Source: Longimicrobiales bacterium
GTDB lineage: Bacteria > Gemmatimonadota > Gemmatimonadetes > Longimicrobiales > Gaopeijiaceae
Assembly (NCBI GenBank): GCA_963422615.1
Contig: OY730414.1
Location: 1,410,302 to 1,474,301, forward strand
Direction: 5' to 3'
Length of the DNA: 64,000 nt
Positions 58,983 through 64,000 of the stretch are shown here, in pieces (position 1 is the stretch's first letter; every line of letters starts with the position of its first letter). The position numbers and the translations under genes are program-made. The notes under the pieces are model-generated. The model saw only the letters and a list, made by a program, of their open reading frames with translations. It had not been told where the DNA came from and searched no databases.

Positions 58983-60587
58983 TCATTCGCCCGGGGACTG
59001 ACGCCCCCAGAGTCCCACGTAGAACCGGAAGCCGGCCTCCAGGGACCGGGTGGCGGGCACGACCCCCCGGATCCCTCCCGCGACTTGGCGGTAGACGGCC
59101 CGGATCTCCAAGGGGCTCCCGAGAACACCTCCCTGGAAGGACCCCGCCCGGTTGAACACCATGCCCAGGGAGAGTTTGCCCGACGACACCAGGCTTCCCC
59201 TGACCAGGACATCCGGATCCGGGAGCGATGAAGCGGCAGGGTCGACTTCTCCGGTTTTCATCGTGAATGCGTCCTGGCCCTTGCGGAAATAGCGGTAGCC
59301 GACAAAGAGGGTCAGGGGATCCGTGAGCCGGTACCAAGGTGACAGTTCGACGAGTTGGTAGTCCCCCGGCTTCCATTCAAGTTGAACCTGAGTGTCCAGG
59401 GGGGCCATGGCGAAGGTGGGGTCGAAGACCCGCCGAACCGCGGTTCCCTTGAATTGGATGCCGTAACGAAAGTCGGCCCAGAGGCCGAGTCGGCCCCGCC
59501 AGTGTCCGTTTGTCCACCCCCGGACCTCCAGGTCGGGCTGGCCGTCCCCGGATCCTGCGTCCATGAAGTTCGCGGGATCGTTCTGAGTCGCCGTCGGGAG
59601 CCGGAGGAGCGCCCCGCCGCCGACAACGATGTGGTAGGAGTCCGCTTCGTCCCCCTTCTTCAGAAAGCGTGCGTTGGCTCGGACTTCCACGTCGCCCAGC
59701 ATCCAGAGGGACTTCCACTTCTCCAAGGGGTGAGACGCGGCGATCCCGAACAAAGAATCGGTGACCAGGCGTTGCAGGTCCTCAAGGTCAAGAAGGGCAC
59801 CCGACAGGGGAACGGTCGCGGGGGTGCCGAAGATTCCCGCGGCGTGGTAGGCCTCGGAAAGCGCGGTCAGGCGGGCTTGCAGGGCCACGCCCGCGGGGGA
59901 CCACTCCGCCGGGGCCATCCACGTGCCGTACATGGTGGACAGGGCCTGGTGGAAGCTGTGGGAACTCGTCAGCACTTCCGTCGCCTCCCGGCATTCCGAC
60001 GACGTCGGATCGCCGGCGCAGGCGCTATTGCGGAACCCTTGATACGCGGAGATGGAGCCCTGAAGGCCCGACAGGAATTCCGAAACGGCGGCCTCGTTGG
60101 CAAGGCCTGGGCTGAACCCCGCGTTGACGTCGGCGGAGTCTGCGGCAAAGGAGAAGGCGATCTCGGTCTCGTTCCGCACCAGCGGGACCAGGCCGCCCAA
60201 GGTTAGCCAGTCGAAAACCCCTACGTCCACGGAGATGGGGAGACGGACCGAGCTTTTCTCCATCACGGAAGCCATGGAACCGAGGTTCATTGTGTAGGAT
60301 TCCCCGGAGGCGGTACGCACCGCCGCTTCGAAGCGAGCGAGGGCCGGGAAAATGTTGCTGCCAGCAGGACCCGTGAAGGCCGCGCCCAGGTCTTCCAGCT
60401 CGTTGCCGACCGGGCGGGCATCGCCTGGGCGACCGTACCGGGCAGAGAAGATCGAGTAATCGGACCGGATGCCGAGGCGAGCCATCCCCTTGGGCACGAG
60501 GGGGGAATAGGGTTCCTGCGTAGCCGACTGGACGGGGGCGGCCAGGGCTACGAGAAACGAGAAGAATAGGGAGGTGGGGCGGAGCAC
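58983..60587 (-). CDS. exported/outer-membrane hypothetical protein
   Basis: signal-like FFSFLVALAAPVQSA; LGDVEV and LRLPT then amphipathic strands; start uncertain. Confidence 0.65.
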   Translation of the reverse strand: MLRPTSLFFSFLVALAAPVQSATQEPYSPLVPKGMARLGIRSDYSIFSARYGRPGDARPVGNELEDLGAAFTGPAGSNIFPALARFEAAVRTASGESYTMNLGSMASVMEKSSVRLPISVDVGVFDWLTLGGLVPLVRNETEIAFSFAADSADVNAGFSPGLANEAAVSEFLSGLQGSISAYQGFRNSACAGDPTSSECREATEVLTSSHSFHQALSTMYGTWMAPAEWSPAGVALQARLTALSEAYHAAGIFGTPATVPLSGALLDLEDLQRLVTDSLFGIAASHPLEKWKSLWMLGDVEVRANARFLKKGDEADSYHIVVGGGALLRLPTATQNDPANFMDAGSGDGQPDLEVRGWTNGHWRGRLGLWADFRYGIQFKGTAVRRVFDPTFAMAPLDTQVQLEWKPGDYQLVELSPWYRLTDPLTLFVGYRYFRKGQDAFTMKTGEVDPAASSLPDPDVLVRGSLVSSGKLSLGMVFNRAGSFQGGVLGSPLEIRAVYRQVAGGIRGVVPATRSLEAGFRFYVGLWGRQSPGE

Positions 60588-60964
60588 GGCTGAACCGGGT
60601 GACGGCGCGCGGGGCGGAAACGGAGCCGTAAGGGGACGGCTACGAAAACTCAAGGTAACAGCTTCCCGTTCCGGCGTTCGGTCCTGCACTGTAGGTCGGC
60701 CGGGCCCGATTTGCGCCGACCCATGCCCGGGACTCTGGCGTCGCCGACGTCTGAAATGGCCACGGAGGGACGCCCCGCCGCCCCCCGAAGTCCCTTGGCG
60801 GGTCCGAAGGGAAAGCGGGGCCTGCAGCCGGGACCGGGAAAAGGAAGTCACCCAGCCGGGCGATGCCCGGGACTTGGCGGCACGCTTCGTGGCGGAACTT
60901 TGGAGCTCCGGTCGCCCTGCCCCAAGCCCCTTGATCACCTTGAGGGGGCTTGGCCGATCCTTCC

Positions 60965-60994
60965 TTGACATCCTTGCGAGCGTCTCTTTACTCT
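60965..60994 (+). promoter_or_regulatory. candidate sigma70 promoter of tRNA operon
   Basis: TTGACA - 18 nt - TACTCT, about 95 nt before tRNA-Gly. Confidence 0.55.
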
Positions 60995-61087
60995 TCTGGT
61001 CCTTGAAGAAGCCCGGAAGTGCCCTGGATGGGGATGTTGCCGTGTCCTAAAGCAGGCCTCCCATGAGTCCTTTCGGGCAACGAGAAC

Positions 61088-61160
<73 letters not shown>

Positions 61161-61210
61161 CTTGGTAGAATCGGGCGGCGGCGGTTGTCGTGCCGCCCTT
61201 CTTTTGCGCA

Positions 61211-61282
<72 letters not shown>

Positions 61283-61389
61283 CTTGCTTGGGGGGCTTGC
61301 TCAGGCGGGAGTCGCCACAGGCGGAGGGAGTCACCAGGCGCTTCTACAACGATCCGATCATGCGCCTTGATGCGCGATGCGCGGGGACC

Positions 61390-62025
61390 ATGGCCTACAT
61401 TCGCTACGCATCCCCAGCCGAAGGAGGACCCCAGGTGTCGGCGCTTCGTGACCGCTATGGCGGTTCCGATGGGCGCTTGGACAACATCCTGAGGATCCAC
61501 CTCCTGAATCCCCCTTCCCTGGAGCATCACTACCTATTGTACCGGCACCTGATGACGGGGTCTTCGCCTCTGTCCCGGGTTCAGCGGGAAATGATCGCGG
61601 TCGCCGTTTCCGCCGAAAACGACTGCTTCTATTGAATCAACCATCACGGAGCGGGTCTCCGTAGGCTCACCGGGAGTGCCGATTTGGCAGAGGCTCTGGC
61701 CAGGGGACGTCGAGACGGAATCGGCGAAGCGGATGGCGCCATGTTGGACTACGCGGTTAAGCTGACCCGGCATCCCGGCGCCATGACCCGGGAAGACACC
61801 GGGTTGCTCCGGGCGGCGGGCTTTGGCGACCGGGCCATTCTGGATATCTGCCAAGTCGTTTCTTACTACAACTACGTGAACCGGCTGGCCGACGGTCTGG
61901 GCGTGGAGCTGGAAGCCCACTGGACCCTCGCAGACCAAATCCTGACCCGGGAAGATTTCGAGGCGCGGCGGCAGAAGCGGAAGATTCCGTCGCCCCGAGG
62001 GGCCCCTCCTGTTGACGGCGCGTAA
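61390..62025 (+). CDS. AhpD/carboxymuconolactone-decarboxylase-family peroxidase, probable selenoprotein (TGA 61633-61635 = Sec)
   Basis: ORFs 61063-61635 and 61684-62025 share a frame: LSRVQREMIAVAVSAENDCFY-U-INHHG..LDYAVKLT..LRAAGF..YYNYVNRLADGLG. Confidence 0.85.
61636..61662 (+). promoter_or_regulatory. candidate bacterial SECIS element
   Basis: ACGGAG-CGGGT-CTCCGT stem-loop starting 10 nt after the in-frame TGA, G-rich loop. Confidence 0.65.
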
Positions 62026-62046
62026 CGAACGGGAAGGTCCAGCGCC

Positions 62047-63618
62047 GTGATCACGATCGACGGCTACCGCCTGACCTTGGGGCAGATCGAGGCGGTGGCG
62101 TACGATCGCCTCCCGGTTCGGCTGGCCGCCGAAGCCTTGGAGCAGGTTTGCCGCTCCCGGGCGCTGTTGGACCGCCTCTTGGATGAGGGAATCCCGATCT
62201 ATGGCGTGACGACCGGCTTCGGAAGGCTGGCCGACATCGCAATCCCGCGCGAGGAACAGCGGGCCCTTCAGAAAAACTTGGTCCGGAGCCATTCGGCCGG
62301 GTCGGGGTCCCCGCTCCCCGTTGCGGAGGTACGTGCGATTCTGCTCCTTCGGGCCAATACCCTGGCCCGGGGACATTCCGGCTGCCGTCCCGTGGTGATT
62401 GAGCGACTGCTGGACGTCCTCAACCGGGGCATCCACCCCATCGTGCCCGAAATCGGATCCGTCGGCGCCAGCGGCGACTTGGCGCCCCTGGCCCACGTCG
62501 CCCTGGGACTGATCGGGGAGGGCAGGGCCGAGAAGGACGGCAAGGTCGGAGAGGCAGGGGCGTTGCTGGCCGAGGCCGGGATTCCCCCTCTGGACCTTGC
62601 AGAAAAAGAGGGCGTGGCGCTGATCAACGGGACTCAGGCCACAACCGCGATCGGGGCTCTGGTGCTATGCCGGTTCGGCCGGGCCTTGGACACGGTCGAC
62701 GTGGCCGGGGCAGCGAGCCTCGAGGGGCTGAAGGGGACCCCGTCCGCGTTCCGACCCGAGATTCAGGCGGTCCGGCCCCATCCAGGGCAGATCGCCAGCG
62801 CCCGGCGCCTCCGGGCCCTCTTGAAGGGATCCGAGATTCGGGAGTCCCACCGGGAGGGGGACTCGAGAGTGCAAGACGCCTACTCCCTCCGCTGCATGCC
62901 TCAGGTCCACGGGGCCGCCCGGGAAACCCTGGACTATTCCCGCCGAATCCTCACGACGGAAGTCAACTCCACCACCGATAACCCGCTGGTCCTGCCCGAC
63001 GAGGAGATCGTGCTCAGCGGGGGGAACTTTCACGCCCAGATCATTGCCCAGTGCCTGGACTTGGTGGCCATCGCGGCGGCGGACTTGGCTTCCATCTCCG
63101 AACGGCGGATCGACCGGCTTCTCAACCCCGAACTGTCCGGGCTGCCCGGCTTCCTCACCCCTAGGCCCGGGTCCCGCTCGGGCTTCATGATCGCTCAAGT
63201 GACCGCCGCCGACGCCCTGGCCGAAATGCGGATTCTCGCGACCCCGGCCAGCATCGATTCCGTGCCGACCAGCGCTTCTCGGGAAGACCACGTTTCCATG
63301 GGGATGGCGGCGGCAAGGAAGGTCCGAAGAAGCATGGAGTTGCTGGAAACGGTCCTGGCCATCGAGATCCTGTGCGCTGCCCAGGCCATTGATTTCCACC
63401 GGCCCCTCCTCCCCGGCAGAGGGGTGGGACGGGCCCTGGCAATTGTGCGGCGCAACGTCGCCCCCCTGGACGACGACCGGGTGCTGAGCCCCGATATCGC
63501 CGCCGTTTCGGACATGGTGCGGGCAGGCACGTTCGCGGCCATTTTCCAGGAACGCAGCGAACCTCCTCCGGAACGGGCAGATAAGGCGGACGACACCGTG
63601 AGGCGGAGACGTCGATGA
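62047..63618 (+). CDS. hutH: histidine ammonia-lyase
   Basis: [11 protein letters not shown] motif [37 protein letters not shown]. Confidence 0.96.
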
Positions 63619-64000
63619 CGGGGGAGGGCCGGATCGTGCGGGCGCCTCGGGGACGCGCACTCAGGTGCCGAGGCTGGACCCAGGAGGCGGCGCTTCGAAT
63701 GCTCATGAACAACCTGGACCCCGCCGTCGCAGAAAACCCGGAGGCGCTGGTGGTGTACGGCGGCACCGGAAAAGCCGCCAGGAACTGGGCCGCATTCGAC
63801 GCCATCATCGCTGCCCTGAAAGTTCTGGAGGACGACGAGACCCTCTTGGTCCAATCCGGAAAGCCCGTTGCGGTGTTCAGAACCCGGCGAAGCGCGCCTC
63901 GCGTCCTCATCGCCAACGGGAACTTGGTGGGCCGCTGGGCCACATGGGAGCACTTCCACGAGTTGGAACGGGCGGGGTTGACGATGTACGGCCAGATGAC
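63615..64000 (+). CDS. hutU: urocanate hydratase, 5' part (runs off window)
   Basis: [41 protein letters not shown] overlap with hutH; absent from ORF track. Confidence 0.95.

Follow-up and report, generated by a model that had tools for sequence, protein, structure and literature searches.

Positions 61390–62025 on the plus strand of the window, the 64,000-nucleotide stretch of DNA analysed here, are read with good confidence as one gene of 211 codons whose single in-frame TGA very likely encodes selenocysteine (Sec), yielding an AhpD-like protein whose predicted activity is that of a thiol/selenol peroxidase or of a disulfide reductase. Insertion of selenium at UGA82 itself appears nearly certain, and the gene is very likely a real selenoprotein gene of a family known since 2005.

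Evidence for selenocysteine at codon 82

The frame opens with ATG at 61390, at the same MAYI start from which relatives begin, and closes with TAA at 62025. Its sole internal TGA occupies 61633–61635 (+) as codon 82, in the context GAC TGC TTC TAT TGA ATC AAC CAT CAC (peptide ENDCFY-U-INHHGAGLRR), where the predicted selenocysteine takes the second position of C79-x-x-U82. The ORF list breaks the gene into two pieces, 61063–61635 and 61684–62025, the first of which carries a false upstream start and passes through two tRNAs. The sequence-only reading had treated these pieces as fragments of one frame separated by the TGA at 61633, and the single 211-codon frame confirms this. A hexamer model built from the source genome rates both halves as coding, at 0.14 and 0.15 per codon, and gives −0.39 for the two remaining frames of the 3′ half.

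That the organism uses Sec, as had been supposed, is borne out by its genome (one contig of 2.6 Mb, 98% complete), in which selA (497 bits), selB (308), selD (378) and the tRNA-Sec gene selC (79) all exceed curated cut-offs. The selD gene is of the Sec type, carrying its own in-frame TGA. A relaxed ARAGORN run on the same genome returned 1249 calls and was set aside as noise.

Among 61 relative genomes, 32 match the AhpD-like gene; of the 30 loci returned, own locus included, 22 carry TGA at the Sec column and 8 carry Cys. In GTDB, search patterns that left out the Sec column led to 596 confirmed stretches, and the best 80 of these, spread over many phyla, comprise 76 with TGA and 4 with TGC at the column; 28 further phylum loci, one of which repeats an earlier locus, carry TGA without exception. 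Neither TAA nor TAG occurs at this column across more than 100 loci of many phyla; relatives were expected to hold TGA or Cys there, and scattered stops are indeed absent. These sequences are kin, not independent samples. The sel genes are found in 20 of the 21 TGA genomes as selA or selB, the 21st (78% complete) having a Sec-type selD, and selA and selB were not found in seven of the eight genomes whose best match carries Cys (78–97% complete). A marginal tRNA-Sec match in genome G004 (51 bits, 84 nt) counts against that genome lacking Sec. In a quick-version tree, seven of the eight Cys loci form a separate clade and that of G001 stands alone within the close group; because this tree has many open forks, no order of Sec and Cys events is claimed. 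The Cys version of G001 sits at the same locus as the source gene, and such Sec/Cys pairs in one clade suit tests of the attacking residue. In one close homologue, L052, a premature TAG stands 60 codons past the TGA, which marks a pseudogene or an assembly error.

Downstream of the TGA lies a candidate bacterial SECIS element at 61646–61662 (+), in which ACGGAG (61646–61651) pairs with CTCCGT (61657–61662) around a CGGGT loop, the hairpin starting 10 nt and the loop 16 nt past the TGA. The bSECIS model given in PMC13188914 specifies a loop of 3–9 nt, a stem of 4–16 bp, a UGA-to-loop distance of 16–37 nt, a G within the first two loop positions and an energy of −7.5 kcal/mol or lower. The geometry here falls within that description, with a 5-nt loop, a 6-bp stem, G at the second loop position and a spacing of 16 nt, while the bare hairpin folds at −6.7 kcal/mol and its centroid in a 48-nt segment reaches −7.5, the value of the published model. 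The 6-bp stem, the CGGGT loop and the 10-nt distance are all as first described from the letters; the hairpin taken alone is unremarkable. Surrounding segments have no folding advantage over shuffled sequence (z +0.1 to +1.0), a similar SECIS rule is passed by 60 of 450 ordinary TGA stops, 11 of the 450 having a loop start at +16 to +18, and an Rfam scan of 60900–62100 returns two tRNAs only, with no match to a SECIS family. By itself the hairpin is not beyond chance, and the real evidence lies in its conservation.

Specifically, pairing is retained in 93.2% of cells across 22 TGA genes, with slid controls at 30–49% and 2 of 500 shuffles as high. Within these 22 genes a single stem pair shows two-sided change, in three sequences, and an A-U/G-U pair varies in ten. 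Additionally, synonymous codon choice was compared with expectations from the same genes in the 42 of 97 distinct TGA genes, themselves kin, that encode H-G-A-x-L-R: GGR is used in 42 of 42 (16.5 expected), GCG in 42 of 42 (15.5), CTY in 42 of 42 (18.3) and CGT in 40 of 42 (4.8). The near-fixed synonymous codons are those that preserve the stem and the loop G, and the codon of the loop Gly is variable. The codon of His86 (61645–61647, +), which overlaps the stem, is CAC in all 42 genes, and the His codon preceding it is CAT-biased (30 of 42). All six pairs recur in the source register in 40 of the 76 TGA loci among the best 80 of 596 GTDB stretches, and many others hold a shifted hairpin. Six of these 76 loci (L068, L072, L078, L081, L084 and L095) show no hairpin within +7 to +32 and may use a different or farther SECIS; they carry TGA and an H-x-R-N-L-R peptide, and most are records from Chloroflexota. 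In four Bacillaceae-type records (L076, L082, L092 and L098) the TGA occurs together with a perfect hairpin, and should these carriers prove to have the Sec machinery, they would give the family cultured hosts in which it can be tested.

Protein family and predicted redox chemistry

The read-through protein scores above cut-off against TIGR01926 (126.5 bits, cut-off 81.8), TIGR00778 (45.2, cut-off 27.8) and the Pfam CMD family PF02627 (38, cut-off 23), in keeping with the earlier proposal of one 211-residue AhpD/CMD protein, a predicted selenoenzyme. Sec-containing AhpD-like families, to which that proposal appealed, are indeed catalogued: a 2005 study of the Sargasso Sea described 27 CxxU sequences of COG2128/TIGR01926 (PMC1088965), 'AhpD-like 1' in GOS comprises 299 sequences (PMC2398784), and Table 1 of a 2026 review (PMC13188914) counts the AhpD-like protein (TIGR01926, CxxU) among those 'Predicted with high confidence'. 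The family is thus listed as predicted, not experimentally verified. With it the gene shares TIGR01926, the CxxU motif, a SECIS-like hairpin immediately 3′ of the UGA and widespread Cys homologues; nothing defining sets it apart, its clade differing in some 20 extra residues at the C-terminus, modelled with a predicted helix at 187–198, and in its position before hutH. The model NF041238 (AhpD-related (seleno)protein, CFYUT) has the CFYU motif in common and matches weakly over residues 45–178, but it spans 357 positions and the score of 59.3 bits lies below its cut-off of 175, so the source protein is not a member.

In alignments U82 coincides with the second Cys in PDB entries 3c1l, 2pfx and 6k40, the best PDB sequence matches, and this, with the TGA/Cys column in relatives, upholds the earlier placement of the TGA on the second Cys. 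An AlphaFold model built with Cys at position 82 (pLDDT 94, pTM 0.89) has 2pfx, 3c1l and 6k40 as its top structural matches; Bmp8, which would favour a dehalogenase reading, ranks 19th. The Cys-type structures Mlr4105 (3c1l), TM1040 YP_614459 (2pfx), D. radiodurans DR1765 (6k40) and R. eutropha YP_296737 (2prr) share the all-helical fold (TM-score 0.72–0.78), 25–34% identity and the relay residues, but carry CxxC where the source gene has CxxU. Loss of DR1765 raises sensitivity to H2O2, and both of its Cys residues are needed (PMC8945050).

The AhpD-type helix-turn-helix site, composed of Glu, Cys, Tyr/His, Cys(Sec) and His, is represented by E67, C79, Y81, U82 and H86. E67, C79, Y81 and H86 are invariant in all 46 aligned sequences and are spaced as in the AhpD relay, formed by Glu118, Cys130, His132, Cys133 and His137 (PMC3141380). 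Glu67 (61588–61590, +) is the equivalent of the M. tuberculosis proton-relay residue Glu118, Cys79 (61624–61626, +) is the first Cys of the redox pair, and His86 corresponds to the relay His137. The Glu-Cys-x-Cys-His relay is shared with M. tuberculosis AhpD and P. aeruginosa PA0269, both described as having weak peroxidase activity and lipoyl-based reduction, and the source protein has Tyr at the position of M. tuberculosis His132, as in PA0269.

A redox function is well favoured. In the proposed mechanism, SelB bound to the hairpin (61646–61662) would bring Sec-tRNA to UGA82, and the selenolate of Sec82, held in the helix-turn-helix site, would attack a hydroperoxide or the disulfide of a partner. 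Cys79 would then resolve the intermediate to a selenenylsulfide, with Glu67, Tyr81 and His86 assisting, and a dihydrolipoamide-based system would re-reduce the protein. By analogy, Sec is probably the attacking residue: in M. tuberculosis AhpD the second Cys, Cys133, is exposed and cross-links to AhpC (PMC6626918), and since Sec82 occupies its place, the selenolate would attack and Cys79 resolve. The roles of Cys79 and Sec82 could be reversed, as suggested by B. thailandensis AhpD, in which the first Cys matters more, and by Sestrin2, in which the first Cys is the only one (PMC4674687). The lipoyl donor is an evenly balanced proposal, also drawn by analogy: lipoamide systems re-reduce AhpD proteins (PMC8945050), and the source genome holds one lipoamide dehydrogenase (lpd) above cut-off. 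M. tuberculosis AhpD partners AhpC, whereas no AhpC above cut-off, the classic AhpD partner, was found in the source genome, so that the AhpD-like protein would act directly or reduce other peroxidases. In C. glutamicum, OsmC is reported to be fed by AhpD, and the source genome has two OsmC-like candidates.

Gene surroundings and a possible link to histidine breakdown

The gene is preceded by tRNA-Gly(GCC) at 61088–61161 and by tRNA-Cys(GCA) at 61211–61283, the latter 106 nt upstream, and is followed after 21 nt by hutH, encoding histidine ammonia-lyase (62047–63618; TIGR01225, 656.6 vs 539.15, with synteny). The start of hutU, encoding urocanate hydratase (63615–64000), overlaps the hutH stop by 4 nt and leaves the window; all four genes lie on the plus strand. 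The full hutU scores 930 against TIGR01228 (cut-off 375), and past it lie a hutF-like gene and hutI. A promoter scan returned no sigma-70 site, and one terminator-like hairpin between the two tRNAs is at chance level. Divergent from the tRNAs, an ORF of about 660 codons (58983–60971, −) without a Pfam or NCBIfam match is kept at this site in relatives (24–52% identity, 8 loci).

Among 40 close loci, picked by similarity and family and including 15 from one genus, hutH (33) or hutU (1) lies directly 3′ of the AhpD-like gene in 34, and stop and start overlap by 4 nt in 27 of these. The link is kept while upstream neighbours differ. In G004, G019 and G030, which give no selA, selB or selD matches, the tRNAs are followed by hutH and the AhpD-like gene is absent, an arrangement that resembles the same site after loss of the gene or in an empty state. 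A literature search found no publication on an AhpD/hut linkage, supplements possibly listing the source clade, and this linkage is the new part of the finding. The simplest reading is that the order probably represents inheritance within one family.

A true selenoprotein with a job in histidine breakdown would keep the Cys residues of HutH/HutU reduced, take an S-/Se-histidine derivative as substrate or make hut expression depend on selenium through the UGA. This reading, which draws on the adjacency, the frequent overlaps and the changing upstream neighbours just described, is considered unlikely. In its operon form, the AhpD-like gene would be the first protein-coding cistron of a hut operon, translationally coupled to hutH, with the UGA serving as a selenium gate (scarce Sec leading to a stop at codon 82 and lowered hut expression), or the enzyme would serve histidine or thio-/seleno-histidine catabolism; this form is likewise unlikely. 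Selenium-dependent uncoupling at the Sec codon of T. primitia fdhF (PMC3892789) provides a precedent. Selenium-dependent control of histidine catabolism is possibly at work, and a functional coupling would tie trace-element supply to amino-acid catabolism.

Several observations weigh against such a job. The link is limited to one family: hut genes lie directly downstream in none of 97 distant loci, and the AhpD-like gene lies upstream in none of 17 other hutH loci, many of whose genomes have sel genes. In G012 the gene is located about 12 kb away from hutH, and in L025 (G035) and L182 (G323) hutU directly follows an intact selenoprotein gene, hutH being a remnant or missing. HutH and HutU are canonical, both falling below thiourocanate-hydratase cut-offs, and no HutH Cys column cleanly follows gene adjacency; Cys113 occurs in 16 of the 17 adjacent loci and in 8 of the 16 others, a difference confounded by kinship. 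The source genome itself shows the 21-nt gap and no overlap.

Alternative readings of the TGA, database entries and further candidates

Reading of the TGA as Trp or Cys, through an alternative code or leaky read-through, or its origin in a sequencing error, is highly improbable. Among 120 database homologues (P0002–P0121), the Sec column is given as W in 31, which would suit a Trp reading, and as R in 2, G in 1 and L in 1; 24 entries are C-terminal fragments, 19 entries start at residue 83, right behind the column, and the entry of the source gene, P0019, is an N-terminal piece that ends at CFY. The W, R, G and L readings and the residue-83 starts are consistent with gene-caller artefacts, and W is probably one, since P0007 closely resembles L032, which has TGA. 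Standard annotation does split such genes, as predicted, and also misreads them, and the selenoprotein reading puts right an error that recurs systematically in database annotation. Among the stops of the source genome TGA is the most frequent (450 of 734 long genes), so no code change is indicated, and tRNA-Trp(CCA) and tRNA-Sec(UCA) are both present.

An assembly error behind the TGA is unlikely, as judged from the contigs of two runs; raw reads in run X16 number two, both on the tRNA. In run X2, possibly the source sample, a 7.2-kb contig at depth 68 shows 0 differences to 61222–62200, while run X7, from a different study and a related strain, shows 24 differences across 61222–61954, none in the TGA or the stem. 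In this strain 10 of 14 altered codons are synonymous and the TGA is kept. A real stop, leaving a pseudogene or two small separate proteins, is the least credible reading of all, the predominance of TGA among stops and the split database fragments being outweighed by its position at the catalytic Cys column across phyla without TAA or TAG, by two coding-like halves with mostly synonymous close-strain changes, and by the active-site helix that a split would sever.

The nearest named relatives place the organism in Longimicrobiales (Gemmatimonadota). With TGA82 read as Sec, its 2.6-Mb genome holds at least nine candidate selenoprotein genes and represents a lineage of Gemmatimonadota that uses Sec. 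A genome scan for TGA between coding-like halves, which can miss short selenoproteins, gave 83 candidates, of which 26 were inspected and 8 tested, resulting in eight further candidate genes, all of them in families for which Sec forms are known. SelD, FdhA and an ArsC-like protein score above cut-off, UGSC lies just under its NCBIfam cut-off and above that of Pfam, and the remaining candidates are two Prx-like and two OsmC-like proteins. On G000:C1, two AhpC/TSA-type candidates with apparent signal peptides lie at 2454383 (−) and 2470851 (−), the ArsC-like gene at 1392715 (+), the UGSC family gene at 1301824 (+), FdhA at 2308502 (+) and SelD at 390673 (+). FdhA likewise has a hairpin with a 5-nt loop, which begins 18 nt past the UGA. 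The OsmC-like genes with in-frame TGA, at 874638 (−) and 1009307 (+) (L130 and L131), encode AAAAG-U-LLGT and AATGG-U-LVGT with near-identical downstream hairpins; both match Pfam OsmC and fall far under the NF041052 cut-off. Elsewhere on G000:C1, a cluster of 17 tRNA genes occupies about 2.3 kb of the minus strand at 287968–290279.
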